Source: a virus
Length of the DNA stretch: 64,000 bases
Strand: one strand, 5' to 3'
IMG/VR virus record: IMGVR_UViG_2974600762_000001
Location: 39,688-103,687 of that record
Positions 22,054 through 41,791 of the stretch are shown here, in pieces. The first letter of the stretch is position 1; each line of letters opens with the position of its first letter. A program made the translations under genes and the position numbers. The notes below the pieces were generated by a model. That model was given only the letters and a program-made list of their open reading frames with translations, was not told the origin of the DNA and made no database searches.

Positions 22054-22881
22054 GTGCCTGATAGCTTCTTAGCCTTTGACGAGGCTAACAGTTACTTAGA
22101 TAAACAGCAACGCTCATTAGACTATTTAGACCGTATTCAAAAATTGTCAGTAATTGCTAAAAATAACATTGACATCAAGGATACACATGGCTATAATAGA
22201 GCAGAATATATTGATAAATTAAACCATCTTGAAAAGCTACCAACAACTAGTATTGCGCTTACTAAGTTAGCTCTTAGAGATAATGTGGCTAAGCCTATAA
22301 GTTTAGCTGAGTTTAAGGACTTAGTCGATGAGATGAACAATGATGATGACAATATGCAGGTAGAAAGTCAAGTTGGAGTACTAATAGTAGAAACACAAGC
22401 CCCAGTAGAAGCTATGCGTAAAACTATTCGGAAATTTTTGGACCAAGGTTATCCCCTGAGTGGCGCTTGGAAGGTTCCAATTGTTTCTAGTGAAGATGCA
22501 AAGTTTATTAATATAAGTAGTGCAAACGAGTCGAATGGGGAAACTAATGACCAAGCCGAAGACCTCTATGAGCAAGTAAAGAAAGCAACTAATGACCCGG
22601 AGTATGAAAGAAAACTTGATGCTAGGATTGAAAAAGCATATGTCAATAAAATGCGTTCTGGTAATATTGATGATGAGGATGACCAAGATTCCGATAATCT
22701 TTTTAGAGCGGAAGACTTTATGGTATACCCTGAGCTCATGGATGACACAAATAAGCAGATAGAGCGTGCAGCACAACACAATATTGATGTTATTAATAGT
22801 GTATTCCATACTAATACTGCCAGATTTATGTCAACTACAATTACTACTACTACAACAACTGTACCTGAGAAAGGAAGATAA
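22054..22881 (+). CDS. acidic hypothetical protein with C-terminal poly-Thr tract (frame open from 21964)
   Basis: Ends MSTTITTTTTTVPEKGR; GTG 22054 has no visible SD. Confidence 0.7.
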   Translation: MPDSFLAFDEANSYLDKQQRSLDYLDRIQKLSVIAKNNIDIKDTHGYNRAEYIDKLNHLEKLPTTSIALTKLALRDNVAKPISLAEFKDLVDEMNNDDDNMQVESQVGVLIVETQAPVEAMRKTIRKFLDQGYPLSGAWKVPIVSSEDAKFINISSANESNGETNDQAEDLYEQVKKATNDPEYERKLDARIEKAYVNKMRSGNIDDEDDQDSDNLFRAEDFMVYPELMDDTNKQIERAAQHNIDVINSVFHTNTARFMSTTITTTTTTVPEKGR

Positions 22882-22883
22882 TA

Positions 22884-23984
22884 ATGAATAATACTTTTAT
22901 CCAAGAAAATTTTGATGTAGCCCCTGTTCAAGCAAACACTAATGCTAATAATGGGGTTAGTACCCAAGTAGACAGCTTAGAATTGACTGATGACAGTATT
23001 GCTAAGTTTGGCTTAGATGTCCAACGTGGCGTTGGCGAATTAACTAATGAAATCACTCAAAGTACCAAGAATAAGAATGCAGGGGAAACTGGCGAGGCAA
23101 TCACTGCATTAATGAAAATTATTCGTGAAAATGGCAAAGATGAAGACCAGGGCGGTAACATTATTACCCGTTTGTTCCGCAAGGGTAAGAACTCTGTATA
23201 TAATATCCAAGCTAAGAACCAAGCGGTAGACAAGTCTATTGACACTATTTCTGCCAAACTATCGGATTCCCAGACTGAGCTAAGCCATGACAACGAAACA
23301 CTGGACAAGATGTATGAACAGAATAAGCAACAGTTTCAAGCCTTGAATGAACTAGTTGATATTGCTCAGGATAAATTAAATGAGCTAGAATCGTCTATTA
23401 TTCCAGAGTTAGATAACTACATTAAAACAACTAAGGATGGCGAGGATAAAATTAATGAGGCTACAATTAAGCTTAATGAATACCAGAACATGCAATCAGC
23501 TTTGAGTCGTAAACTTAATAATCTAATTGCTTCTCGCCAACTAGCATTATTACGGGCACCTAAGCTAAAGACTTTAAAACAAACTAACTTAACAGTCATT
23601 GATAACTTACAGAGTTCGATTAACTTTGCTATTCCGCTATGGAAACAGCAAGCAGCCGATGCTATCTTGGCTAGTCGCCAACAACAGGCTATTGAGGTTC
23701 AGAAGTTCATGACTGAGCAGACTAATAAGATGATTGTATCTGGCGCCGATAATGTTCGTAAGGCTACTTTAGAAGCTCAAAAGCAGAGCAATGAATCCTT
23801 TGTATCTGCATCTAAATTAACTCAGGCTACTGATATCTTACGAGATACCCTTGTACAAGTACAAAGCTTACAAAAGCAAGGGGACTCTTTACGCAAGCAG
23901 GAAGCTAAGGACTTACTACAGTCTGGAGAACATATGAAAAGTGTAGCGTTAGACTTGATGAAGAATAACAAAATGATTGAATAA
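22884..23984 (+). CDS. telA: TelA/YaaN toxic anion resistance family protein
   Basis: I.KFG..VQ, L.HDN..L..MYE.N, L..RQ.A...AP.L..L..TN, IPLWKQQ motifs. Confidence 0.9.
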   Translation: MNNTFIQENFDVAPVQANTNANNGVSTQVDSLELTDDSIAKFGLDVQRGVGELTNEITQSTKNKNAGETGEAITALMKIIRENGKDEDQGGNIITRLFRKGKNSVYNIQAKNQAVDKSIDTISAKLSDSQTELSHDNETLDKMYEQNKQQFQALNELVDIAQDKLNELESSIIPELDNYIKTTKDGEDKINEATIKLNEYQNMQSALSRKLNNLIASRQLALLRAPKLKTLKQTNLTVIDNLQSSINFAIPLWKQQAADAILASRQQQAIEVQKFMTEQTNKMIVSGADNVRKATLEAQKQSNESFVSASKLTQATDILRDTLVQVQSLQKQGDSLRKQEAKDLLQSGEHMKSVALDLMKNNKMIE

Positions 23985-28287: not shown

Positions 28288-29016
28288 ATGAAATATACAC
28301 AATACAAGGGCAATAATAGGTGGTTTAAGCACTTACAAGATATCAAGCAGACTAAGCCTATCAGAGCAAGCATTCAGGGGCTAGAGAGCAACCTAGTTGA
28401 TACAATTGTTGTTATTAATAGCTTGCACATGAACAAGGATTCGGCATCATGGGATATAGAGTTAAGCAAAGAGGTGTATAAGAACGTTCCGAACCCACTA
28501 AAGGAAATTGCTGGTCAAATTGAATTTGATGAAAATACAGATAGCAAGTTCTTTATGTGGACTACTAATCATAATCGTTTATATGACCTAAGTGAAGTAG
28601 GTCCTTATACCTTATTTGAATCAAAAACAGACAGCGGAGTAATTCTAAGAGTTCTCTTCACTAAAGAAACTAACATGTTGCTGCCTATCAATACCTTGGC
28701 CTTGAACGAGCATGAGCTTGGCAGAAAAGAAAGAAACACAATTAATCATCTTATCCACCATCGGCTGGCTGGTAAACTATGGCGTGCAACTATCGTCACT
28801 AATACCACCTCACAGACAACTGAGCTATCCTATAATAATCTCAGTTTAAATACTGTATTTGGAGAAGCAATCTCATTAGGAAATATATATGGAATGGTGT
28901 CTTACAATGCTAAAGGGAAATACAAGGTATTTGTAGAAGATGATAGTGCTACTATCCAAATTGTTCAGTCGTATCATACCGTTATTCTAATTAAGTTTCT
29001 ACCACTAAGATTATAG
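28288..29016 (+). CDS. hypothetical protein
   Basis: 242-aa ORF, last gene before the early region. Confidence 0.7.
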   Translation: MKYTQYKGNNRWFKHLQDIKQTKPIRASIQGLESNLVDTIVVINSLHMNKDSASWDIELSKEVYKNVPNPLKEIAGQIEFDENTDSKFFMWTTNHNRLYDLSEVGPYTLFESKTDSGVILRVLFTKETNMLLPINTLALNEHELGRKERNTINHLIHHRLAGKLWRATIVTNTTSQTTELSYNNLSLNTVFGEAISLGNIYGMVSYNAKGKYKVFVEDDSATIQIVQSYHTVILIKFLPLRL

Positions 29017-29026
29017 CAATAGTATC

Positions 29027-29056
29027 AATGACTGTCTAATAGGCGGTCATTTTTAT
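29027..29056 (+). terminator. intrinsic terminator
   Basis: AATGACTGTCT-aat-AGGCGGTCATT-TTT. Confidence 0.8.
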
Positions 29057-29137
29057 TATGCCTAAAAGGAGGTGGGTATAATACTAACCCCCACTAGGTT
29101 ATTTTAAGAACTATAATACTTAGTTGTAAACTGCCCC

Positions 29138-29260
29138 GATTTATTAGTAATTTTTTCAAAAAGTTTCCCCGAAAATTTTACCCCCACCTCAATATCTGAA
29201 ATTTGCAAATAATAAGTATAATCCTGTCCGGATTTATGAGTAATTTTTTCAAAAAGTTTC
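29138..29260 (+). repeat. 30-nt direct repeat GATTTAT(T/G)AGTAATTTTTTCAAAAAGTTTC (29138-29167, 29231-29260); partial third copy 39951-39972
   Basis: Read directly, 1 mismatch between the first two copies. Confidence 0.85.
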
Positions 29261-29455
29261 TTTTAAAAAATTTATGGGCGTGCTGGTGGGTGAGCAATGG
29301 GCGTGCTAGTGTTGTGCTTGATTGTGATACAAATACAGTTTTAACACCTTATATAGTAGGAAAAATAATTGAAACGATTTTAATAAAAAATGTTGACACT
29401 AACAACGCCTAGCTATATACTATAGTCATTCAAGTAAAGGAGAGGGCGCTACATT

Positions 29456-29653
29456 ATGAACGATAGAGAACCAGCACCAAGCAAAAAGCATAAGTTACCT
29501 AAATGGATAAAGTTACTATTATGGATTGCAGCCTTTTACATTCTATGGAATGCAGGCAAGATGATAGTTGTTTACATTCTATGGTACCCGGGACGAATGC
29601 TATTAATGATAGGGTTAGCGTTATTATTAAGTGGGCTATTCAATAGACACTAG
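29456..29653 (+). CDS. early small membrane protein
   Basis: Own promoter, SD GGAG, two hydrophobic helices. Confidence 0.7.
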   Translation: MNDREPAPSKKHKLPKWIKLLLWIAAFYILWNAGKMIVVYILWYPGRMLLMIGLALLLSGLFNRH

Positions 29654-29728
29654 AAAATAATAAAATAGATGTTGACATGATATGTAATTGATGATATTAT
29701 AAAATAAAAAGTAAAGGGGTTTTATACT

Positions 29729-29899
29729 ATGTTATTCTTTATCAAAATGGTTATTATTGGGGCAATTCTTGGGGGTGTCTTGGAAATTATTAAAGGGCTG
29801 ATTAATGCCATTGTAAAAAATGATGATACGGCTAAAACATTAAACGGGTATGTTACTGCAATCGGATGGCTTGTAATAATTTATGTATCTATCTTTTAA
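29729..29899 (+). CDS. early small membrane protein, 56 aa (not in ORF track)
   Basis: MLFFIKMVIIGAILGGVLEIIKG...; SD AAGGGG; promoter at about 29672. Confidence 0.6.
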   Translation: MLFFIKMVIIGAILGGVLEIIKGLINAIVKNDDTAKTLNGYVTAIGWLVIIYVSIF

Positions 29900-29905
29900 G
29901 GGGGT

Positions 29906-30208
29906 ATGATAATGATTATTAATAAAAGTAATACTGGAAATTTCAAGTTTCAATCCTATGACGGCCGAACATATAACCGGCCTAAAATTCTACACCGACA
30001 AGCCACAGAACTATATAATAGGGGCTTGCAGTACGTTTTAAGAGGTTTTAAACCTCTAAAGGATAACGGGGTTATAATTGCTTTCAATCCAACACCGGAA
30101 CAAGTAGTGAACTACGTTGATACTACTAATTATAGTAGCTACTGGCTAGAGATTGCACGGCCATTAGGTGGGAAAATCAAGGTTAAAAAAGTTTCATTAT
30201 ATGGTTGA
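29906..30208 (+). CDS. early hypothetical protein
   Basis: SD AAGGGG. Confidence 0.65.
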   Translation: MIMIINKSNTGNFKFQSYDGRTYNRPKILHRQATELYNRGLQYVLRGFKPLKDNGVIIAFNPTPEQVVNYVDTTNYSSYWLEIARPLGGKIKVKKVSLYG

Positions 30209-30266
30209 CTATAAAATAGTATAATGCTATGATACACATGTAACGTAATCAAGGAACAAAATAAAT

Positions 30267-30282
30267 TGTTTCACGTGAAACA
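30267..30282. promoter_or_regulatory. parS: parS site (ParB/Spo0J binding)
   Basis: TGTTTCACGTGAAACA, perfect match to TGTTNCACGTGAAACA, inside a 22-bp palindrome. Confidence 0.85.
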
Positions 30283-30303
30283 ATTGAAAGAAAGTGATAT
30301 ATT

Positions 30304-30711
30304 GTGAAATTTAAAGAATTTATGAACCATGGTAAAACTGAGAATGATATTAAGCAAGACATTTATAAGTATGGTAAACAATTGGATACGATTGGAAAGC
30401 CGGCAAACAGCTATATGCAATTATACAAGGTACAACAGTATGATAGCGGACGGCGGGCGGTGAACCTTGGTACTTATAACATGTATTTTAGAAACATTGC
30501 AGAACTAAACTTATATCGCAAACCCTTGGTCAAGTTAGTGAGTGATGGAATTGACTATGTGTTATATTTTCAGATTATTCAGCAGGCTATTTTAATGGAT
30601 AACAAGCGAAATGTAAAACTAGTAACAAAACCATCATTCTCGGACTTTTTGGGGGTTGATGATGATTTAACAAATTTATTTCAAAATACGCTTGACAAGT
30701 TGCGAGAATAA
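30304..30711 (+). CDS. early hypothetical protein
   Basis: GTG start, own promoter. Confidence 0.65.
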   Translation: MKFKEFMNHGKTENDIKQDIYKYGKQLDTIGKPANSYMQLYKVQQYDSGRRAVNLGTYNMYFRNIAELNLYRKPLVKLVSDGIDYVLYFQIIQQAILMDNKRNVKLVTKPSFSDFLGVDDDLTNLFQNTLDKLRE

Positions 30712-30750
30712 CCGTATGCTATAGTTATTCAAGTAAAGGAGGTTATAGAA

Positions 30751-30828
30751 GTGGCTACATTAAAATTAGTATTTATTATTGTAATTGCTATCTATGCTTA
30801 TAAAAAGTATAAAGACAATCAGAAATAA
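30751..30828 (+). CDS. 25-aa membrane peptide (MATLKLVFIIVIAIYAYKKYKDNQK)
   Basis: SD GGAGG, GTG start. Confidence 0.5.
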   Translation: MATLKLVFIIVIAIYAYKKYKDNQK

Positions 30829-30905
30829 AGTTTAAAAAGTTCTTGACAGGCTAGTAACTAAGGTATATAATTAAGTCATTAAACAAGAAAAGGAAGTTAT
30901 ACATT

Positions 30906-31175
30906 ATGAAAACTTTAGATACATTTGAATTACAACCACAGCTTGACAACGCACAATCATTCTACAAAAAGGCTTACACCTTGCATAATAATGACGGTAG
31001 TATTGATTTAAAGTCGTATGACACAATCGTAGCAACCTTTAAAGCTGGTATCATTACCGTTAACGACACGTATTCAGCTACCACGTTACGCCACATTAAG
31101 GAATTTATTTATCAGACTACTGGTGTTAGTGGATTATCTAAAAAGGATATTGAAAAGGATTACCAAGCAAACTAA
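30906..31175 (+). CDS. early conserved phage protein
   Basis: SFYKKA...LKSYDTIVA...YSATTLRHIKEF pattern; own promoter. Confidence 0.75.
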   Translation: MKTLDTFELQPQLDNAQSFYKKAYTLHNNDGSIDLKSYDTIVATFKAGIITVNDTYSATTLRHIKEFIYQTTGVSGLSKKDIEKDYQAN

Positions 31176-31257
31176 TAACTAATTCAAAATACTGGTTGAC
31201 AATCTGCAATAGATATGTTAAACTAATTATAACAAATAAAGAAAGAGGTTTTACATT

Positions 31258-31500
31258 ATGACAACAATTGATAACTTAGAGGATAACGCAATTACCTTAG
31301 TAGGTCGTTTGGTACAGGTTGACCAGTCTCTCGATGAGTACGCTGGCATGATTGGCCGTGTGCTAAAGCCGGATAATCTTGAAAATGAGGTTATCGTTGA
31401 CTTTACTGATAGTCCTTTTGTTAATGCACAAGTTAAGGGTGAGTACCTTGGTGAGGTTAGTGAACAGGTTATGGACTTGTTTCCCCTTGATGAGCTTTAA
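31258..31500 (+). CDS. early acidic small beta-barrel-like protein
   Basis: Own promoter, SD GAGG. Confidence 0.7.
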   Translation: MTTIDNLEDNAITLVGRLVQVDQSLDEYAGMIGRVLKPDNLENEVIVDFTDSPFVNAQVKGEYLGEVSEQVMDLFPLDEL

Positions 31501-31596
31501 AAATATGTATTGACAGTAATAACTAGACATGATACTATTAAAGAGTACCAAGATGGTAACAGAACAGAAAAACATTTAACCTTAGGGGGTTATATT

Positions 31597-31899
31597 ATGG
31601 CCGCACATTTCAGCGAATTAAATTCTTTAATTGACCTTTTGTATCATAACAACGATGTTATTGGGGACACTAAGGTAACAAGTATTCATAAAGGTAGTTT
31701 CAATGAGTATGAGGGTTACCAGTATTGTATTGGTATCAAGATTGTTACACTACCTAAGTTTAAAAACAAGCAATTTATGTGGGACACCAATTCAACATAC
31801 ATTTGTGATTTTCTACCGGATAAGGACTTAACGGAAAAGGGAGAAAAAGAGTTTATCATTGACGGGTTACAAGATGTGTTTGCAAGTGCCTTAGACTAG
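31597..31899 (+). CDS. early hypothetical protein
   Basis: SD GGGGG before ATG 31597. Confidence 0.65.
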   Translation: MAAHFSELNSLIDLLYHNNDVIGDTKVTSIHKGSFNEYEGYQYCIGIKIVTLPKFKNKQFMWDTNSTYICDFLPDKDLTEKGEKEFIIDGLQDVFASALD

Positions 31900-31926
31900 C
31901 AAGACCCGTGGGATAACTAGTATAAA

Positions 31927-31942
31927 TGTTTCACGTGAAACA
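31927..31942. promoter_or_regulatory. parS: parS site
   Basis: TGTTTCACGTGAAACA. Confidence 0.85.
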
Positions 31943-31976
31943 TTACTTGATAAAATAAATTAAGGAGATTTTAAAA

Positions 31977-32225
31977 ATGAAATTAGAAAAAGCAATTGAA
32001 CTATTACAAGGTGATACTTTTGACATGGAAGAAGCATTCTACTCTGAATTGGGTGGTGACGTAACTGCTGAATATATGCTTACAGTAACTGACGCTGAAA
32101 CCCTTATTAATGAACTTGAAATTGACTTATCAAGTATTGATGATTATAATGCCCTACATGATGAGGTTGAAGAGAGTTTGTATGATAACATGGACGGCGG
32201 TGTTGACGGTGTAAGCCGGGATTAA
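31977..32225 (+). CDS. early highly acidic protein
   Basis: 24 D/E versus 3 K/R in 82 aa by hand count; SD AAGGAG. Confidence 0.75.
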   Translation: MKLEKAIELLQGDTFDMEEAFYSELGGDVTAEYMLTVTDAETLINELEIDLSSIDDYNALHDEVEESLYDNMDGGVDGVSRD

Positions 32226-32234
32226 AGTGTAAGG

Positions 32235-32262
32235 GGCTAGCTTAATAGGCTAGTCTTTTTTA
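32235..32262 (+). terminator. intrinsic terminator; near-identical copies at 36966-36993 and 37761-37786
   Basis: G(G/A)CTAGC-ttaatag-GCTAGTC plus T-run. Confidence 0.85.
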
Positions 32263-32472
32263 TTATCTGTTTAACGTCAATACACGCCTATACTTTCAAT
32301 TCTAACTGTGATTATAGCTAGTTATACTGGATTAGCTTAAAACGTCTTAAAACGGCTTATATGGCCTTGTAGCTGTATAGCAAAATAAACTAAATTATTT
32401 TGATTTAGCTGTTGACAGCTATGGATAATATTGTTATACTTGGTTTATTCAATAAGGAGAGGTCGTTATACA

Positions 32473-32607
32473 ATGATTATTATCAGCATGGAAACATTGC
32501 CTAAAATTATCGAACTAGCACTTGCAGTCTACGGGGGTATCAAACTAGTTGACAAGTTGTTCCCTAGTATTAAGCAATCAAAATTCTTTCAAAGTTTTTT
32601 CAATTAA
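32473..32607 (+). CDS. early 44-aa peptide (not in ORF track)
   Basis: Promoter 32412, SD GGAGAGG. Confidence 0.55.
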   Translation: MIIISMETLPKIIELALAVYGGIKLVDKLFPSIKQSKFFQSFFN

Positions 32608-32670
32608 ACTATTGACATTTAAATTCACTGAGCCTATAATTAGGTTATTAAGTAAAGAGAGGTTATTATC

Positions 32671-33099
32671 ATGAAAATGGATATTACATTAAACATTGAA
32701 TTATACAAGGACGGCACGGTTATGCTAGATAATTGCAGTAGCGAACGGACTTATGAGAGTGGTACAGTTAAGTTCACGGGGACAATTGATGGGCGGCGCA
32801 AGACCTTTAACCCTATGGAAACAATGGAAAAAGCAGGACTAGTTACCACCAAGCACGATGAGAGTATGTTCCCTGATTATAAGGCTACTAGCAAGCTATA
32901 TAAGGCGTTTAATAGCACCGGCTTAGTTTTAGGCTTTACAGATAATATCAGCACTAGAGAACGCTTAAATAGCATTATAAAGGAAACTGGTGTAAGCCAA
33001 CAGCAAGCATTCACGAATTTAAAGAATGCAGGCGTTATAGCTGTAGCGGACGCATACCAGTTAAGTGATAAAGAATTAAAAACAATTATTTTAAAATAG
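32671..33099 (+). CDS. early hypothetical protein
   Basis: Own promoter, SD GAGG. Confidence 0.7.
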   Translation: MKMDITLNIELYKDGTVMLDNCSSERTYESGTVKFTGTIDGRRKTFNPMETMEKAGLVTTKHDESMFPDYKATSKLYKAFNSTGLVLGFTDNISTRERLNSIIKETGVSQQQAFTNLKNAGVIAVADAYQLSDKELKTIILK

Positions 33100-33165
33100 T
33101 TGTTGACAGACTAGCAACTAAGGTATACAATTAAGACATTAAATAAGAAAAGGAAGTTATACATT

Positions 33166-33555
33166 ATGGCAACTAAAATTAGTGAATTAGAAAGCCTTAC
33201 ACAGAAGCACTTTGATACAATCATTGACCTAGCTAACAGTTTTAAGGATAACAACCCTTACAAGCAAGAGTTTGTCAGTCATTTATTATATGATTACTTG
33301 TATGACGTTAACGCTATTTGCCGTGAAACAACAGTACAAGAGACTGCTGAGCGGTTAGGCGGATTGCGGGCGTATAGACAAGCCCTAGCGTTTGACCTAG
33401 AACATTTAGATTTAATCATTAAAATTGCTAGTCGGGTATTTGATGATAACCTTGATAGTATCATGAGCTACTCTAATAACCCTACGGAAACCATAGACAT
33501 TACACAAGACTATTTAAACGACTTTTATGAAATTTATAACGAATATTTAAAATAG
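33166..33555 (+). CDS. early hypothetical protein
   Basis: Own promoter and leader. Confidence 0.7.
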   Translation: MATKISELESLTQKHFDTIIDLANSFKDNNPYKQEFVSHLLYDYLYDVNAICRETTVQETAERLGGLRAYRQALAFDLEHLDLIIKIASRVFDDNLDSIMSYSNNPTETIDITQDYLNDFYEIYNEYLK

Positions 33556-33620
33556 TTGTTGACAAGTTAGAACATTATTGCTATAATTAAGACATTAAAT
33601 AAGAAAGAGGTATTTACATT

Positions 33621-34130
33621 ATGGGATATACAGATGGAGTAGCAAAATCAATGAGTGAAGCAAGTGCACAAGGTAAGCTGTTTTTAATTGACAGCTTTAC
33701 TTACAAGGATAGCAATTACAACCCTGATGACTTGGACGGTGAAGCATTATCAGACTTTTTAGACCAAAAAGTGGACTTAGATTATACCGATTATGTTGAG
33801 TTGCTTAGAGATGGTTACGCTTATGACGGTGAAAGTAATGAGATTAACTTAACCGAAAATAAAGATGGCTTTACAGTCAATGTATATCAATCTGCATTAG
33901 CTTTTATTGATGATAATAGTCAAGGCGGCCTGTATTATATCTTTGATGAAACTAAAGAATTGTTAGGGGCTAGAATGGGTGTTTGTGGTGAGCATATTGG
34001 AAGTGTTTCAGTATGGCTAGACACTACGACCCCACAAGCTACCTTAACACAAGGCAATGAGGTTTATCACTTAACTAGTGAAGATACTGATGATATTAAC
34101 GAGGGACTAAGCGAATTGTTTTATGATTAA
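33621..34130 (+). CDS. early acidic protein
   Basis: Own promoter, D/E-rich. Confidence 0.7.
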   Translation: MGYTDGVAKSMSEASAQGKLFLIDSFTYKDSNYNPDDLDGEALSDFLDQKVDLDYTDYVELLRDGYAYDGESNEINLTENKDGFTVNVYQSALAFIDDNSQGGLYYIFDETKELLGARMGVCGEHIGSVSVWLDTTTPQATLTQGNEVYHLTSEDTDDINEGLSELFYD

Positions 34131-34227
34131 TTTAAAATAAGTTATAAAAAGTCTTGACATAGAATAGCAGTAATGTTATTCTATATACATAAGTTAAAAC
34201 AATAAATAAGAAAAGAGATAATACATT

Positions 34228-34500
34228 ATGAAAACTGTTAATAAAGCATTGTTTACTGATGAGACGGGCCGCACGTATAGCCAGACCTTTTATGACTTAC
34301 AAGACGAAGCTGAGGGCTTAGCTATGTTACAGCACTATACAGGTACTGAAGACGAAATAGATGAGCAAGAGAATGAGTATGCTTTATCTTATTTATCTGA
34401 TTGTTATCGTGCTTGTGAAAACGTGCCAGAAATCAATGAAGATGAGTGCATTGATTTTCATCAATGGCTTGATTGGTTGCAATATGGTTATTTTAAATAA
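34228..34500 (+). CDS. early acidic protein
   Basis: Own promoter, D/E-rich. Confidence 0.7.
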   Translation: MKTVNKALFTDETGRTYSQTFYDLQDEAEGLAMLQHYTGTEDEIDEQENEYALSYLSDCYRACENVPEINEDECIDFHQWLDWLQYGYFK

Positions 34501-34571
34501 AATAACCATTGACAAGTTAAGACATTACTGCTATAATTAAGACATTAAATAAGAAGAGGAGTTAATACATT

Positions 34572-34889
34572 ATGAAAACAGTAAAAGTAGCAAACAACAT
34601 GCAGTTATTTGATGATGACGGTTACCACTATAACAGGTGCTTAACTCTTGATATTAAGTCATTTAATAAATTCTTGACCAATATTAACCAACTTTTACAA
34701 CACGAAAAGGGCTATTCTAGTGATAGAACTTGGCTAGAATGCTTGCCTACCGAGCAACTAGAAAAGGGTATCTTAACACTCACCTTAACGCAAGCACGGT
34801 ATCTAATTCAGTGGTTAAAAAGCAATGGTTATGTTTTTAAAGGACACAAAATTAAAAGTGAAGTAAACACGGTTGTAAAATTATTTTAA
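34572..34889 (+). CDS. early hypothetical protein
   Basis: Own promoter, SD GAGGAG. Confidence 0.7.
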   Translation: MKTVKVANNMQLFDDDGYHYNRCLTLDIKSFNKFLTNINQLLQHEKGYSSDRTWLECLPTEQLEKGILTLTLTQARYLIQWLKSNGYVFKGHKIKSEVNTVVKLF

Positions 34890-34960
34890 GATAATTGTTG
34901 ACAAGTTAGAGATTAAGATATATAATTAAGACATTAAATAAGAAAAGGAAGTAATACATT

Positions 34961-35254
34961 ATGACAGCAAGTGAAAAATTAGTAGAATTACTTGAAAACG
35001 ATAAATTGACTGACGACCAATTAGACAACTTGAACAGCTGGGGTATTCTAACCGTGTCAGAGTTGAGAGAGTATCTAATTGACTTAATTAGTGAATTGAA
35101 AAATGAAGCTATTAGTGTTTCATATGAAGAAGCTGTTTGTGCATTATCTGATTTACTTGATTATAGTGATGATGGTGAGTATATCATTTATGATGAAACT
35201 GGTGTAACTAAATTAGATTTTGATACCTTAGATGACGTTTTAGATGTTGATTAG
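34961..35254 (+). CDS. early highly acidic protein
   Basis: About 27 D/E versus 5 K/R in 97 aa. Confidence 0.75.
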   Translation: MTASEKLVELLENDKLTDDQLDNLNSWGILTVSELREYLIDLISELKNEAISVSYEEAVCALSDLLDYSDDGEYIIYDETGVTKLDFDTLDDVLDVD

Positions 35255-35270
35255 AGAAGAGAGAACTAAA

Positions 35271-35639
35271 ATGAAATTATATAAATTATTGATTACTATT
35301 GTTGCCGGGGTTACATTGTCCCTAGTTACTGCATATAAGGCTGATGCTAGCCGGCCTAATTATGCGTATACCTTAACACGGACTAAGCACGCTGTTAAGC
35401 TTACCAATACCGGACGAACTGAAAACATGTACCGCGTAACGGTTAAAACTGGAAAAGCTGTAAAGTGGTATTATATGGCGCTAAACGCTAAACAGTCATG
35501 GACGGTGAAACAGCCTAACAAGTATAGCGTTACTGTTCGGCGGGTTTCTAAGAATGATGAGAAGCGCAATGCAGACCCGCGCAATCACTTTACACCAGTA
35601 GGAATCCGTAGCACTCAACGAACACTATGGAATCGTTAG
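35271..35639 (+). CDS. early basic secreted protein
   Basis: Signal peptide MKLYKLLITIVAGVTLSLVTAYKADA; K/R/T-rich mature part. Confidence 0.65.
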   Translation: MKLYKLLITIVAGVTLSLVTAYKADASRPNYAYTLTRTKHAVKLTNTGRTENMYRVTVKTGKAVKWYYMALNAKQSWTVKQPNKYSVTVRRVSKNDEKRNADPRNHFTPVGIRSTQRTLWNR

Positions 35640-35663
35640 AATAGAATAATTGGGGGAATTTAA

Positions 35664-35948
35664 ATGAAAATTAATGACAACCATAATGATGACTGGAAAC
35701 TCGGGGCTGTTTTATATGATAATATTTCTAAAAATTACTATTTAATTGCAAGCTACAAGCACGAAATAGGATTAGTTAATTTAAAAAGCGGGATTTCTAT
35801 GCTATCTCATACTCATGATGAATATCGTGCTATCATTAGCTCGGATAGTTCCAATAAAAACGTGGTAAAGCAAATTTTGAAACATCACAATGGAAAAGAA
35901 GATTTAGTTAAAATTGACAGTGCTTGCTTGCATATTTATTGTATGTAA
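35664..35948 (+). CDS. early small beta-domain protein
   Basis: WKLGAVL...YYLI...IGLVNLKSG pattern; SD GGGGG. Confidence 0.65.
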   Translation: MKINDNHNDDWKLGAVLYDNISKNYYLIASYKHEIGLVNLKSGISMLSHTHDEYRAIISSDSSNKNVVKQILKHHNGKEDLVKIDSACLHIYCM

Positions 35949-35991
35949 GCTATTAGGTATTACATTAAATAATAAAAGGAAGTTATATATT

Positions 35992-36246
35992 ATGAAAAAG
36001 CAAGACGCATTAGACGCACTAGACGGCATGACTTATTTATTAGGGGACGTTGCATTCTCTGACGCACTTGGGCGTGATGTCAACTTTGAGTACACTGGAT
36101 ACGTAGACGAACCACAAGCGTTATTAGATTGTTTAGGAATTGACTATAATAACTATGAAAGTGAATCCGAGTTGTTAAACGCTGTGGAAAGTGCTGTTGA
36201 TGATTGGGATATTTCAGAACGGTTAGACGGTATGGAACTAGCATAA
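35992..36246 (+). CDS. early acidic protein
   Basis: SD AAAGGA before ATG 35992. Confidence 0.7.
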   Translation: MKKQDALDALDGMTYLLGDVAFSDALGRDVNFEYTGYVDEPQALLDCLGIDYNNYESESELLNAVESAVDDWDISERLDGMELA

Positions 36247-36263
36247 TTGGAGGAATTTAAAAA

Positions 36264-36434
36264 ATGGGATTTACTGAAGCTTTAACAATTGTATTTGTAG
36301 TATGTAAGTTATTAGGTATTATTACTTGGTCATGGTGGCTAGTATTATTACCTGAAATTATTGCCGGTGTATTTTATCTACTGTTTTTAATTGGTTTTGT
36401 TGGACTATCTATATGGGCAATTTTTAGAGATTAA
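36264..36434 (+). CDS. 56-aa phage membrane protein (not in ORF track)
   Basis: LTIVFVVCKLLGIITWSWWLVLLP motif; SD GGAGG. Confidence 0.7.
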   Translation: MGFTEALTIVFVVCKLLGIITWSWWLVLLPEIIAGVFYLLFLIGFVGLSIWAIFRD

Positions 36435-36509
36435 TTAGGTAAAAGGGGTTGACAGCTATAACCTAGTTTGCTATAATTAGGTTATTCAATCGAAAAGGGG
36501 ATTTTAAAC

Positions 36510-36947
36510 ATGGAAAATATTGAACTGAAAGACAATTTTGAGGATTATGTAGTTAACGAATTGGTGAATAAGCTACATGAAGTGAAACCAGAAGACTATG
36601 AAAGCCTTAATGGTGAACCTATTGATGTTGATGAGTTACTTGATATGTTACTTGAAGACGAATACGAAAATGGCTGTTACTACATTTATACCAAAGACAG
36701 CGAAAAGGTATTCAAAAAGTATTTCAAGGATATTTTATACATCTGTAATACTTTTGGGTATACTGATGGTTTACCAATTGAACTGGAAGCAAGCAATCTA
36801 TTATTAACAGCTATTCACTATGTTTTTGAAACCTTGCTGGAAACAACCGTAACATCTTACACCAAGTTTACCCGTGCTGGTCTTGATATGATTGCCGACC
36901 GCATTGCTGGTATTATTCATGATAACCTTACTCAATTGATTTACTAA
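36510..36947 (+). CDS. early acidic helical protein
   Basis: Own promoter, SD GGGG; D/E-rich. Confidence 0.7.
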   Translation: MENIELKDNFEDYVVNELVNKLHEVKPEDYESLNGEPIDVDELLDMLLEDEYENGCYYIYTKDSEKVFKKYFKDILYICNTFGYTDGLPIELEASNLLLTAIHYVFETLLETTVTSYTKFTRAGLDMIADRIAGIIHDNLTQLIY

Positions 36948-37061
36948 TTATGATAAGTAACTATGGACTAGTCTATCATGGCTAGTCTTTTTTGTCTATT
37001 GACAATCCATATAAAGGCTGGTATACTTTAATTATTGAGAAACAAGTAAATATCTCAAAAA

Positions 37062-37077
37062 TGTTTCACGTGAAACA
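37062..37077. promoter_or_regulatory. parS: parS site
   Basis: TGTTTCACGTGAAACA, 15 nt upstream of the -35 box at 37092. Confidence 0.85.
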
Positions 37078-37153
37078 ATTTAAAATAATGGTTGACAAGT
37101 TAGGATATAGGGTATATACTTAGGTCATTAAATAAGGAAAGAGGAATTACATT

Positions 37154-37735
37154 ATGAAATTAGAATTAAACCTTAAAAATCAGGACGCTTACACCGTTGA
37201 GGATATCCAAGCTAGTATGTTAGTTTTAGCCGGTGAACTTGGTAAGCTTGGCTACTGCTTAGATGGTCTATCATATAATACAGATACCCCGATTAACGGA
37301 TTACCACTTAAAAACGCCCGTGCTGATAAGCGTTTAAGCATTGAATCCAACCTAGATAAAAGCTTTGTTTACTCTGATAATAGGGAAATAGAGACGATAA
37401 CCATTGATGCAACGGCGGCCGGTGTTAATACACGTTTAGTTACTCTTGCCTACGTAAGATATAACCGCATGTTAACGACCAACTTTAGTTATGCTGTATC
37501 TATGGTTGAAAAGATTGCAAAGCGCCGACACAATCGCTTTAGCTATAGTAACCGCCGGCGTATTCCAGTTACCAAAAGCAATGTAAAATTAGTTCGTGGT
37601 ATTAAAGGATTTAAAACAGCTAAATTAGATGATATTGCTTTATATGTTTCTGATTTATGGGACATGGATAGCAAGCGTTATACACTGGAAAACATCAAGA
37701 CAGGAACTGAAAAGACCTTTACTTTAAACCGATAA
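37154..37735 (+). CDS. early basic hypothetical protein
   Basis: Own promoter, SD GAGG. Confidence 0.7.
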   Translation: MKLELNLKNQDAYTVEDIQASMLVLAGELGKLGYCLDGLSYNTDTPINGLPLKNARADKRLSIESNLDKSFVYSDNREIETITIDATAAGVNTRLVTLAYVRYNRMLTTNFSYAVSMVEKIAKRRHNRFSYSNRRRIPVTKSNVKLVRGIKGFKTAKLDDIALYVSDLWDMDSKRYTLENIKTGTEKTFTLNR

Positions 37736-38658
37736 AACAGGATTAATCAAGATATTTATGGACTAGCTTAATAGGCTAGTCTTTTTGTATGGTCATTAAA
37801 TAGCATGTATATAAGCCATGTATAGACAGTTACGTATATAGGGGTAGTATAGGTGCATATATAGGTAGTAGGCAATACAGGGGCAATATACATTAGTAGA
37901 CACTGTATGGATATACGTTAACGGGTAATATGCTTAGTAGCCTAAGGTTCACCTATCTTACTAATAATATTACAGTATACAGACAGCCTAGTTACTTGAC
38001 CGACTAACCAATCACGTATAATGGTAGCTGATTACTTAATCACTGTACTAACTAACCAATATGCAATTGTATCGTGCTGGTTTATATCAACTTATTATGG
38101 TTACACATATAGGCTACCTATATACGGCTTATATATGGGCGTGTAGTAATAGTTAGTCATATATAGGTGTAATTATACTGGTATCCATATAAACGGCTTA
38201 GAATGGCTGCTAGGGGCTTATATGGGAATCCTGTATTGGTAGCCTATTACTGCATACAAAAATAACCCTATATACTTTCATATAGGGGTTGACCAGTGGC
38301 TATATACATGTTATAATTAGTTATACAATAAAAGAGGGGGTAAAGATAAAACTACATAGTACGGTCAACATGGCTACATAGTCCAAAAGCCTTACTAGTT
38401 CTGTACGGGGAGTGTATACTTTTTTAAAAATTAAGACTAGACTTCCCTAATCATATCCGGTATAGCTTAGACCGTGTAGCTGTGGTGCTGTCACTATTAA
38501 GTTGTTATTAACCTCCTTTACTTTATATATTAAGTATACAGCTATATAGGGTAAATGTCAACCCTTTTAGCAAATTAAATAAACTTAATTTAGGGGTTGC
38601 ATTCTATGTCCTATCTTGGTATAATTGGGTTATTCAATAAGGAAAGAGGAATTACATT

Positions 38659-38913
38659 ATGAAATTAGATAGCAACGTATTAAGCATATTAATTGATAGA
38701 AAGGTCATTCGCTTTATTGCTCAACCTGATAAGGACGGTTTCAGTAAAGCGGTGGTCGTTAGCCCGTTTAGTCATTTATACTCAGTAGAAAGAGTAAGCA
38801 GTTTTGAACCTTGTAGCAGTATTACTAATAATAACGTTATTTTAGACGGGGTTACTAAGGAGTATAAAACCCTTATGGCTTATCTTAAAGCTAATCAATA
38901 TGAGGCTTTTTAG
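38659..38913 (+). CDS. early hypothetical protein
   Basis: Promoter TTGCAT..TATAAT, SD GAGG. Confidence 0.7.
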   Translation: MKLDSNVLSILIDRKVIRFIAQPDKDGFSKAVVVSPFSHLYSVERVSSFEPCSSITNNNVILDGVTKEYKTLMAYLKANQYEAF

Positions 38914-39104
38914 CCTAATTACAGCTATACCAATTCTAAAATAGGTCAATACTCACCATAGGCTACATCGACTATAAACGCCGGTATAATAGCATTCTTT
39001 AAAATAAAGGTAAAACTATACCAATTTATTTTAAATAGTGGTTGACAAGCTAGGGTGTAGGGTATATAATTAAGACATTAAATACGAAAAGGAAGTAATA
39101 CATT

Positions 39105-39428
39105 ATGATTTTAACAAGTGAATTAGATACAGTAAGTAGCATTAACGAAGCATGGTTACGGGAATCACTAGAACGGGAAGCACGTTCTATCAATGAACAC
39201 ACTGATACCCATATGGAAGTTTATAATAACAAACCTAACCACTTTACAGTAGTAGTTGATGACATGTTTGAATACATGTTAGACACCACCGACTACACCG
39301 CCGAGCTAACGCAACACGTACCAACCTTTCAAGATGAGACTTTACTGGTGGCCGTTGTTGATGATAGTGATACCTTTGAAGATGAACTGGCAATCATGGT
39401 TATCAGCGCTGTTTACAAAACACTATAA
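39105..39428 (+). CDS. early acidic protein
   Basis: Own promoter and leader. Confidence 0.7.
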   Translation: MILTSELDTVSSINEAWLRESLEREARSINEHTDTHMEVYNNKPNHFTVVVDDMFEYMLDTTDYTAELTQHVPTFQDETLLVAVVDDSDTFEDELAIMVISAVYKTL

Positions 39429-39649
39429 AGCAATTAGGGTTATCCATTGGGGTAGCCCTTTTATATACATCCGTCTATACACCATTATAAGCTTGTTACA
39501 GGCGTTTTATATTAGGGGCAGTATAATTACACTAGGTATAGTATAAAACGCCTTACAGGGCTTGTATGGACGTTACAGGGGTATTGACACCACCATTATA
39601 CTATGTTATGCTATATTAGAGTTGAAAGCAGTTGAAAGGCGGTACAATA

Positions 39650-39910
39650 ATGACTAATCATAACAAGCAACAACAAGCATATGCAACACCAGTTAAGGAC
39701 AAGTTACGGCTATTAACGGGTAAAGTTATCACGCTTAATACTGATGACACTAACTACCCAGTTGAATTTGTTGAACCATTGCTATTTTATATTGCTTATG
39801 GCTTACCTGATAAACTAGACACTAACACATTGACTAGCTATTTCAATCAACACTATACCAAGGGTACACCACTCAATAAAGTAGGATTGCACTTGGTTAA
39901 CCCCCACTAA
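39650..39910 (+). CDS. early hypothetical protein
   Basis: TTGACA promoter at about 39584, SD AGGCGG. Confidence 0.55.
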   Translation: MTNHNKQQQAYATPVKDKLRLLTGKVITLNTDDTNYPVEFVEPLLFYIAYGLPDKLDTNTLTSYFNQHYTKGTPLNKVGLHLVNPH

Positions 39911-40187
39911 GCTATTTAAAAAAGATTACTAACTAACTGGATTCTATCCGGATTTATTAGTAATCTTTTTGAATTATTGACCCGGCGAAACATATAAGAT
40001 TAACGCTGCGTACTATCACGGTGGTACACGGGTAGCCGTATCCTATCACGGGAACACGGGGTGCAATCGCAAGCCACCAACGAACTACTGAATAGGTAGG
40101 ATACACCGCCGCCACGTTTCAATGCTGACTATACCACAAATATAAAATAGGCGCAACCGGCAAAATTATTTAAAGTGTTGTCATTGG

Positions 40188-40318
40188 TTCAATGGTAGAC
40201 TGATTCAGTATCGAACTAGTTTAGGCTGTGTATTATATTGCCGTACTGGTTCACTGATGTATTAATTCAATGGTAGACTGATTCAGTGGTGAACTAGTTT
40301 AGCTAGTGTACCATATTG
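40188..40318 (+). repeat. two imperfect 53-nt direct repeats, period 78 nt
   Basis: TTCAATGGTAGACTGATTCAGT(ATC/GGT)GAACTAGTTTAG at 40188 and 40266. Confidence 0.85.
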
Positions 40319-40590
40319 AATCCCGCTAAATTTATTCAAAATACTTTAATAAACTGATTGACACGGCTTATTTTTTATGCTTTTCATTTTAGGCTCGATT
40401 GTGGGTAAATACACCGGGTATCCTTAAAACGGCTTAGAGGGGCTTATATGGCCATATACGGGGTATTGACAATTTGAACCAGTTGTGCATCCGTTTATAC
40501 AAAATATTTTGAGTTTATCCCCTTATATAGTAGTATTTAGTTTCCTTATATGGTATATTTAAAGAGTAGAAAAACAAGGGGGTTACTTAC

Positions 40591-40905
40591 ATGACAAAAG
40601 ATGAAATGGAAAGCTTATTTATTGATGACGGTATCGAACTAACTGACAACCTCGGTCAAGCTATTTATCTATTCAATAACGGTATAATGATATCCGGCGA
40701 ATACTGTGACGGGTTTCGTGGTACTGACCACCGTACGTTATTAGATGAGTTAGATAACTCGGCAACGTATGAGGAACTACACCAAAATTATAGGGTGGCT
40801 CGGCTAGTTCCTGAAAGTATGACGGCGCTGGTTAATGGCTTACAACTTGACGCCGATAAAATAGACATGTTAAAAGAGTACGGGTATACCATTGAAAATT
40901 ATTAA
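40591..40905 (+). CDS. early hypothetical protein
   Basis: SD AAGGGGG. Confidence 0.7.
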   Translation: MTKDEMESLFIDDGIELTDNLGQAIYLFNNGIMISGEYCDGFRGTDHRTLLDELDNSATYEELHQNYRVARLVPESMTALVNGLQLDADKIDMLKEYGYTIENY

Positions 40906-40986
40906 ATTAATTTCAATTAGGTGCTTGACAAGGATATTCTAATTCGTTATACTTAAGTCATTCAATAAGGAAAGGGCGTTATATAC

Positions 40987-41286
40987 ATGACAAAATACAC
41001 GAAAACAGAAGGCACACAAGAAATTTGGGACGCTTTAGATGATTTCTATGACTATGATTCGCTTGCAATTCGACCCGAGGTTTACAACGAGGACGGCGAA
41101 ACATTTATATACTTGAACTTGGTAATTCTAACAAGTGAGAATATTTATTCCTTTATAGAGGGTTTAAGTGTAAGTGTAGAATTAGGCCGGTACGACAACG
41201 ACGACGACGAAACCGAGGCACGGGCTTATAAGAAAGCAATGAAAGCCGCCAGAGAGTTCGATATTCATGTAACCGAGCCGGCTTAA
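40987..41286 (+). CDS. early acidic protein
   Basis: Own promoter, D/E-rich. Confidence 0.7.
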   Translation: MTKYTKTEGTQEIWDALDDFYDYDSLAIRPEVYNEDGETFIYLNLVILTSENIYSFIEGLSVSVELGRYDNDDDETEARAYKKAMKAAREFDIHVTEPA

Positions 41287-41354
41287 AATTAGTGCTTGAC
41301 ATGTTTCACCGTGTTCGTTATAATTAAGTCATTCAATTGAGAGGGGTTTTATAC

Positions 41355-41696
41355 ATGATTAAATTAAGCAATAGCATTAAAGTTTTAGTACCAGAAACGA
41401 ACAATGACGGGGTAAAGGTTGACCTATCTTCTGAGATTTCAGCAGCGGTCAAGGTTATCGGGGGTGCCACCACCTATGCGGCTCGGGGTAATTGGGTCGA
41501 AAAGGATAAGCTATACACTGATAACATTAACGTGGTACACTTCAATTGTGATGAGTTCGATAAGGATACCACTCGGGTCATTAGTGACCTAATTCGTGCA
41601 ATTTTCATCAAGGCCGAACAACTAGCCGTGAGCGTGGAAATTAACGGGACGCTTTACATTTTAGATTCATTTGACGATATTGAAGAATTATTCTAA
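41355..41696 (+). CDS. early protein with GGAT...G.W motif (possible ferredoxin-like/DUF3574-type fold)
   Basis: IGGATTYAARGNW; SD GAGGGG. Confidence 0.6.
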   Translation: MIKLSNSIKVLVPETNNDGVKVDLSSEISAAVKVIGGATTYAARGNWVEKDKLYTDNINVVHFNCDEFDKDTTRVISDLIRAIFIKAEQLAVSVEINGTLYILDSFDDIEELF

Positions 41697-41791
41697 TTAG
41701 TTATTGACGGATACTAACTCAATATAGTAGTATTAAAGAGTACCAAGTTGGTAACAGAACAGCATTCAATTAAAAAAGGGGTATATACATT

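Follow-up and report, generated by a model that had tools for sequence, protein, structure and literature searches.

The DNA analysed here, called the window, is a stretch of 64,000 nucleotides (nt) that corresponds to positions 39688 to 103687 of a complete virus record of 142,567 bp (IMGVR_UViG_2974600762_000001, or G000). It bears three perfect copies of the 16-bp palindrome TGTTTCACGTGAAACA, designated sites A, B and C, which has the sequence of the chromosomal parS sites of Firmicutes, where the partition protein ParB (Spo0J) binds. The copies lie among small open reading frames (ORFs), and their surroundings are given below in window coordinates (gene lengths in amino acids, aa; positions on the complete record carry the prefix G000).

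29400 to 41360, plus strand: array of sigma-A promoter, leader and ribosome-binding-site cassettes with small ORFs, presumed early block, containing the three sites
30205 to 30233, plus strand: promoter reading through site A, TTGACT-17-TATGAT, with an extended -10 TG
30251 to 30285, plus strand: 35-nt presence/absence unit, consisting of AAGGAACAAAATAAAT, parS and ATT
30267 to 30282, no strand: parS site A, perfect copy of the 16-bp palindrome, within the leader preceding the 135-aa gene (30304-30711)
31927 to 31942, no strand: parS site B, perfect copy in the spacer that separates the 100-aa gene (31597-31899) from the 82-aa gene (31977-32225)
36999 to 37027, plus strand: promoter P1, TTGACA-17-TATACT; site C begins 34 nt past its -10
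37062 to 37077, no strand: parS site C, perfect copy flanked by tandem promoters, ahead of the 193-aa gene (37154-37735)
37092 to 37120, plus strand: promoter P2, TTGACA-17-TATACT; its -35 lies 14 nt past site C

Site A is located 33 nt past the -10 of its promoter and 21 nt ahead of the GTG of the 135-aa gene, and both A and C occupy about +28 to +43 of their promoters. Site B lies 27 nt past the stop codon of the 100-aa gene, whose true start is at 31597, and 34 nt ahead of the next ATG, with no promoter between that gene and this ATG. Each cassette of the array (about 29.4-41.4 kb) is composed of an AT-rich upstream tract, a TTGACA-17-TATAAT promoter, a conserved leader and a ribosome-binding site; eight promoters match at 12/12 positions, the repeat families D1 to D6 are present in 6-10 copies each, and the palindrome is found in 3 of at least 12 promoter cassettes. 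Promoter arrays with this anatomy are found in the early, host-takeover region of SPO1-type phages, which depends on the host RNA polymerase, and from its anatomy the parS-bearing block is presumed to be such a region. The module of promoter, 32-34-nt leader and parS also recurs in relatives of this phage.

A previous reading made from the nucleotide sequence alone (the sequence-only reading) had proposed perfect parS sites at 30267, 31927 and 37062, all of them intergenic and with no further copy in the window. Our scan of the window agreed with it on every one of these points, the three sites lying outside genes (3/3; P ~0.02 with a coding density of 72% in the block) and the next-best matches, at 33315 and 42010, having 3 mismatches each. 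When the scan was extended to the whole 142,567-bp genome with up to 2 mismatches allowed, only the same three sites were obtained, and TGTTTCACGTGAAACA was the sole repeated palindrome of 12 bp or longer in the genome. The number of perfect copies expected from base composition was 5e-5 against the 3 observed, none of 100 dinucleotide-preserving shuffles of the window reached the observed count, and the probability that three random points span 6.8 kb or less was 0.007.

All three copies fit the chromosomal-type 16-bp parS palindrome tGTTNCACGTGAAACa at 16 of 16 positions. The parS consensus of S. pneumoniae is tGTTTCACGtGAAACa (PMC4488948), and the 16-mer has also been taken as the parS consensus in two other studies (PMC7383237, PMC10197239), in keeping with the identification of the motif as the Firmicute consensus in the sequence-only reading. 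Judged by their sequence, the three sites are exact Firmicute host-type parS sequences. Perfect parS sequences were present in at least 119 contigs of IMG/VR, most of which are likely to be elements with a ParB of their own.

Sequence identity over the region is 88-92% with the L. plantarum myoviruses Bromius, Bacchae, Semele, Iacchus and Dionysus (Herelleviridae, Harbinvirus), and from these identities the phage is placed as a large virulent Harbinvirus-like herellevirus of Lactobacillus plantarum, the host of every close relative. L. plantarum, one of the lactic acid bacteria, does not sporulate, so that a lytic phage of a non-sporulating host, as had been suggested, is what was found. The annotation of Bromius lists a structural module, a replication module, small hypothetical genes in a plus-strand block that holds the parS sites, and a tRNA-bearing block on the minus strand that converges with it; it contains no integrase. 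Profiles for ParB_N (PF02195), HTH_ParB (PF17762) and AAA_31/ParA (PF13614) had no match anywhere in the genome, whereas the ParB_N and HTH_ParB profiles did give matches in the controls B. subtilis and Lactococcus lactis, and CbiA (PF01656) gave only a sub-threshold P-loop match of 16 bits in a 505-aa ORF. The lack of parA and parB noted for the window therefore extends to the whole genome, which does not encode a ParABS system of its own. Ten neighbouring ORFs contained no Pfam domain and had only PHROG matches of unknown function.

In whole-record scans of related phages, all the sites found fell in the same block. Bromius carries 3 perfect parS, Bacchae 2 perfect ones and 1 with one mismatch, Semele 3 with one mismatch each, Iacchus and Dionysus 2 perfect ones each, and L. 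brevis phage 3-521 (Watanabevirus) 2 with one mismatch each; LP65 has none. Additional contigs were recovered through variants of the 135-aa protein, four of which (L236, L237, L238 and L242) are carriers too; the relatives of this protein in IMG/VR were Bacchae and Iacchus only. The scan of genome and relatives that had been called for thus showed the sites to be conserved in five relatives, four contigs and 3-521. L236 is contig JXWR01000031.1 (51 kb) of NCBI assembly GCA_000960405.1, a Harbinvirus-like sequence with two perfect parS, and if this assembly is that of a bacterial isolate, the phage DNA would have been carried along with the culture.

In a synteny map, every Harbinvirus had site A ahead of the 135-aa gene, its location being unchanged in Bromius, Bacchae (1 mismatch), Semele, Iacchus, Dionysus, L236, L237, L238 and L242; site B came after the 100-aa gene wherever this gene occurs, including 3-521. 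The pairing of the 100-aa gene with parS keeps a conserved AAGACCCGTGG tail in Bromius, Bacchae, L236 and 3-521, showing that gene and site B travel together. Where the 100-aa gene is absent (Semele and Iacchus), a site-C-like promoter-parS-promoter cassette is located one gene further on, which in Iacchus is after the homologue of window gene 31977; homologues of the site C cassette are found elsewhere in the block in Iacchus, Dionysus, Semele and L238. Bromius retained site C though the promoters on both sides had been replaced, and in Semele two parS copies flank an inserted gene. The sites therefore shift position and survive in non-homologous flanks while their count stays at 2-3 per genome. 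At site B itself, the 100-aa gene stops at a TAG, and the 27 nt that follow (CAAGACCCGTGGGATAACTAG; window 31897-31926 with the stop codon) read in frame QDPWDN*, resembling the actual C-terminus EDPWSDY* of the homologue in phage 3-521; the stretch, just upstream of parS site B, represents either a tail cut off recently or a non-coding element that is conserved.

Not all members of the group have all of the sites. Contigs L239-L241, from three metagenomic samples, lack site A by a clean 35-nt gap equivalent to window 30251-30285, their leader being otherwise intact with the flanks GTAATC and GAAAGAAAGTGA conserved. Comparison of window 29000-38900 with four metagenome runs revealed many diverged, recombined versions of the early block. 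These metagenomes were of landfill, compost, anaerobic digester and food-fermentation origin, and many of the versions in them skip or replace sequence at joints located at cassette boundaries.

Such a pattern could also arise if the 16-mer were a neutral or nearly neutral cargo, a joint that the mobile promoter cassettes of a strongly recombining early region have in common. It may once have been captured from a host chromosome or plasmid, it would spread and persist by recombination, and it may bind host ParB without consequence for the phage. The location of the sites at mosaic junctions, the Semele insertion bounded by two copies, the different positions of the cassette among phages, the presence/absence polymorphism of the 35-nt unit, the divergence of metagenome contigs at site edges (loose ends at 31943 and 30273), the crowding of the region with repeated cassettes and the fact that LP65 lives without sites are all consistent with this explanation. 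However, we consider it unlikely. Neutral DNA would decay like its flanks, yet 13 of the 16 positions were invariant in the 21 distinct sequence contexts compiled; gene conversion could not homogenise a joint as short as 16 bp between differing flanks; among the 12 or more cassettes, only the parS-bearing ones share the joint, which is exactly a known protein-binding site; and 2-3 sites are kept per genome despite the turnover of positions.

In the same 21 contexts, the positions just outside the 16-mer had more than 1 bit of entropy, showing that conservation stops at the edges of the 16-mer, which is the ParB recognition sequence, and does not extend to a longer hairpin. The set of variants was not an artefact of the search pattern, because scans with up to 2 mismatches gave no others. 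The sole non-central variant, T5C (TGTTCCACGTGAAACA), was seen once, in Semele; it is the form of the phi29 sites (TGTTTCACGTGGAACA) and the spo0J parS of B. subtilis that has been used in vitro (PMC4333373, PMC8299390). The remaining variants were central CpG to TpG changes, 3 on each strand relative to transcription, and this symmetry over the strands indicates a DNA site without orientation, as opposed to a coding or RNA constraint.

Ten other herelleviruses of about 140 kb, infecting Bacillus, Staphylococcus, Listeria, Enterococcus and L. brevis, were scanned, and nine of them had no parS with 1 mismatch or fewer. The exception was Listeria phage LP-048 (L233), with one perfect parS at record positions 23073-23088. 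We counted this site as intergenic although it runs into the opening codons of a small minus-strand gene (22811-23080), just downstream of an RtcB-like ligase gene. Since nine of these ten herelleviruses are siteless, the parS cluster is specific to the Harbinvirus and Watanabevirus lineages and is no trait of the family; the 21 contexts together with the nine siteless phages correspond to a sequence conserved as a unit under purifying selection.

It is very improbable, in our view, that the element acts in the RNA, either as a leader or intercistronic hairpin (in processing, stability or attenuation) or as the start of a conserved mini-ORF (M-F-H-V-K...). Sites A and C do lie in transcribed leaders and site B is intercistronic, but the hairpin energies were unremarkable against shuffles (z = -0.8 to -1.2), the stem showed no compensatory changes and the flanks that would extend it varied freely. 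As to a mini-ORF, TG is preceded in every copy by A, T or G, which makes ATG, TTG or GTG, several copies have an AAGGA box some 10 nt upstream, and T5C and C8T would be synonymous in that frame. Against this, G9A (Val to Met) was as frequent as C8T, which fits strand-symmetric CpG decay over coding constraint; the putative peptides agree over the first five residues and then part, stopping at 8-20 codons; a Shine-Dalgarno sequence is missing from some copies, and site C of Bromius follows a terminator and has no promoter. The absence of C before TG was not significant in AT-rich DNA (P ~0.15).

The position of sites A and C, at about +28 to +43, is the classical one of an operator or roadblock, and site A is always ahead of a basic (pI, the isoelectric point, 9.2) 135-aa protein, while most of the neighbouring ORFs have no known function. 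The palindrome could on these grounds be the operator of a phage-encoded protein or of another host DNA-binding protein, for instance an autoregulator encoded by the 135-aa gene, with coincidence or mimicry accounting for its identity to parS. We regard this as quite unlikely: an unrelated operator would coincide with the 16-bp parS consensus with a probability of ~4^-8, and no helix-turn-helix, ParB or other DNA-binding domain was detected in the ten neighbouring ORFs (0/10). The 135-aa protein, whose homologues are confined to this phage group, gave a mostly beta AlphaFold model of low confidence (predicted local distance difference test, pLDDT, 66) with no PDB match. Furthermore, no single gene is tied to the sites, given that site B is intercistronic, that Bromius site C is promoterless and that positions turn over, and in L239-L241 the 135-aa gene and promoter are still there although the site is missing. 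A DNA-binding role for the neighbour proteins found no support in Pfam, PHROGs, Atlas, the AlphaFold model or Foldseek.

With moderate confidence, we conclude that the sites are probably genuine host-type parS which selection has kept on the phage genome so that the Lactobacillus ParB (Spo0J) can dock there. In S. pneumoniae, ParB binds tGTTTCACGtGAAACa, spreads over more than 5 kb and recruits SMC (PMC4488948), and ParB-parS specificity is conserved over 17 ParBs (PMC7383237). Within the Lactobacillaceae, ParABS and three consensus parS are known from L. reuteri, and a Hi-C signature marks each of the three (PMC10197239). On this basis the sites are likely to be bound by the host ParB. We infer such binding for the L. 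plantarum protein and, with it, the steps that would follow.

After DNA entry, host ParB dimers would nucleate on the 16-mers, close as clamps bound to cytidine triphosphate (CTP) and slide onto the adjoining early-gene DNA. The phage chromosome would thereby bear the mark by which the cell loads SMC and directs ParA-driven positioning. The likeliest benefit would be that an infecting genome stalled in starved or stationary cells, or in a carrier state, is held and inherited with the host origin regions, a non-sporulating counterpart of the spore entrapment of phi29. SMC-mediated compaction, or titration of ParB by replicating phage DNA, may be alternative or additional pay-offs. Inheritance in a carrier state is the possibility we favour over SMC loading and ParB titration, and the tuning of promoters is the least likely. 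The latter, that ParB spreading tunes early promoters, was one of the options of the sequence-only reading, and it is weakened because a strong constitutive promoter beside parS in S. pneumoniae was not altered by ParB (PMC4488948).

Several observations weigh against selected docking sites. LP65, which has the same host species and shares early genes, is without any site, and the lineage of L239-L241 lost or never gained site A; the sites are thus dispensable in nature, and any benefit is conditional. The sequence-only reading would have been undermined by sites that are not conserved and whose loss is neutral, and this absence was seen in the LP65 and L239-L241 lineages only, the sites being conserved elsewhere. 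Some of the spread could be due to module exchange and not to independent selection, as with site B and its upstream gene in the L. brevis phage. In addition, 6 of the 21 contexts have the central CpG to TpG change, and these variants were not found in the papers searched on ParB sites. ParB clamps can slide off free DNA ends, and partition has no obvious use for a virulent phage; the benefit of the sites is conjectural.

The closest known parallel is phi29, which has five parS sites and a Spo0J-dependent entrapment of its genome in the spore, according to the summary of Meijer et al. 2005 in PMC2731898. This is as the sequence-only reading had stated it, and our own scan of phi29 detected four TGTTTCACGTGGAACA sites. 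Like the phage studied here, phi29 and Nf of Bacillus are virulent Firmicute phages with several host-type parS and no ParB of their own. However, phi29 is a 19-kb protein-primed podovirus and not a 142.6-kb herellevirus; its four strong sites are distributed over 10.4-18.8 kb, at least 3 of them inside genes, whereas all of those described here are intergenic and clustered in a 6.8-kb part of an early promoter array. Its function is tied to a spore-forming host, sporulation and Spo0A boxes, a rationale that cannot apply as such to the non-sporulating L. plantarum.

The chromosomal parS-ParB(Spo0J)-SMC systems of B. subtilis, S. pneumoniae and L. reuteri have the identical 16-bp sequence, and a few copies per replicon, a few kb apart, are similar to what we found (4 in S. 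pneumoniae and 3 in L. reuteri; PMC4488948, PMC10197239). Their sites are placed around oriC, in contrast to the present ones, which are phage-borne, known from sequence alone and on a replicon with no cognate parAB operon. The ParABS modules of P1, N15 and RK2 (KorB) likewise have multiple ParB-type palindromes near promoters on a mobile replicon, but these replicons encode their own ParB and ParA and use a site sequence of their own, while here neither gene is present and the site is that of the host.

Short palindromes beside early promoters, at the joints of shuffled small early genes, are also a feature of the promoter-early stem-loop (PeSL) units of T4-type phages, which reportedly (work attributed to Arbiol et al. 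2010) mediate modular shuffling. PeSL stem-loops are phage-specific and variable in sequence, whereas the palindrome studied here is the exact site of a host protein and occurs in a minority of the cassettes (3 of 12 or more); it is found at mosaic joints beside promoter cassettes, yet its RNA hairpin is not unusually stable.

Other characteristics of the array and of the genome were recorded. Window 30829-41360 contains at least 10 copies of a 79-91-nt cassette (...TTGACA-17-TATAAT-TAAGACATTAAATAAGAAAAGGAAGTTATACATTATG), the leaders and even the first codons of which are unusually uniform for an early-gene array. A second promoter class, with the conserved leader TACTATTAAAGAGTACCAAGATGGTAACAGAACAG, is found at 31510-31567 and 41712-41762; this leader also follows both parS sites of phage 3-521 and is common to phages of L. 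plantarum and L. brevis. An 87-nt non-coding repeat (TAACCCCCAC...ATTTATTAGTAATTTTTTCAAAAAG) is present in three copies (29085-29171, 29178-29264 and 39898-39984) that bracket the parS block and are candidate boundary elements, for example of a terminal repeat. The "direct terminal repeats" (DTR) label of the record proved to be an artefact, consisting of 28 bp inside a diverged tandem-repeat region, and long diverged tandem-repeat arrays span the record ends (G000:138347-142567 and 1-518). No terminal repeat was found in the record of phage 3-521, and the papers on Harbinvirus and on the L. brevis phage say nothing of physical termini.

Restriction-site avoidance is strong throughout the genome (ATCGAT 0 against 13.7 expected, CTGCAG 0 against 13.4, GCATGC 0 against 14.1 and GAATTC 1 against 30.3), and all four of the GATC-containing 6-mers included in the tally are absent from it. 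A restriction-site explanation of the palindrome was rejected, given that CACGTG is not avoided (9 observed against 8.2 expected). Outside the window, an IS605-type TnpB gene (G000:106935-108203) is flanked by repeats of about 245 bp (106682-106927 and 108272-108517), and its nearest genomic relatives, at most 44% identical, are from Flavonifractor, Chitinophagaceae and cyanobacteria and not from lactobacilli. Relatives of the phage Dps were found only in phages, and those of its endolysin in the Lactobacillaceae contig JQBZ01, in L. plantarum CP044233.1 and in a Logan contig encoding a GH25 lysozyme, which NCBI assigns to Liquorilactobacillus aquaticus DSM 21051.

We found no description in the literature of parS on a phage of a non-sporulating Firmicute. 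While the case of phi29 is already known, what is new is a phi29-like set of orphan host-type parS in a virulent phage whose host offers no sporulation rationale. Somewhat doubtfully, we put forward that orphan host-type parS clusters may be a general, unrecognised device of virulent phages and not one specific to the sporulation of phi29. ParB-CTP clamps on the incoming genome, and through them ParA and SMC, would either partition it as a silent episome in a non-growing or slow-growing non-sporulating host, giving a heritable carrier state, or drain ParB from the host origin during takeover.

With its three 16-bp sites, its naturally occurring forms that have or lack them and a host amenable to genetics, the phage makes a clean system in which to study the action of ParB and SMC on foreign DNA. 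If the host ParB is indeed recruited, lytic phages of food-fermentation lactobacilli could ride with the host chromosome, which would bear on the persistence of phages in starter cultures and on pseudolysogeny in general, and the phi29 paradigm would reach beyond the spore formers.

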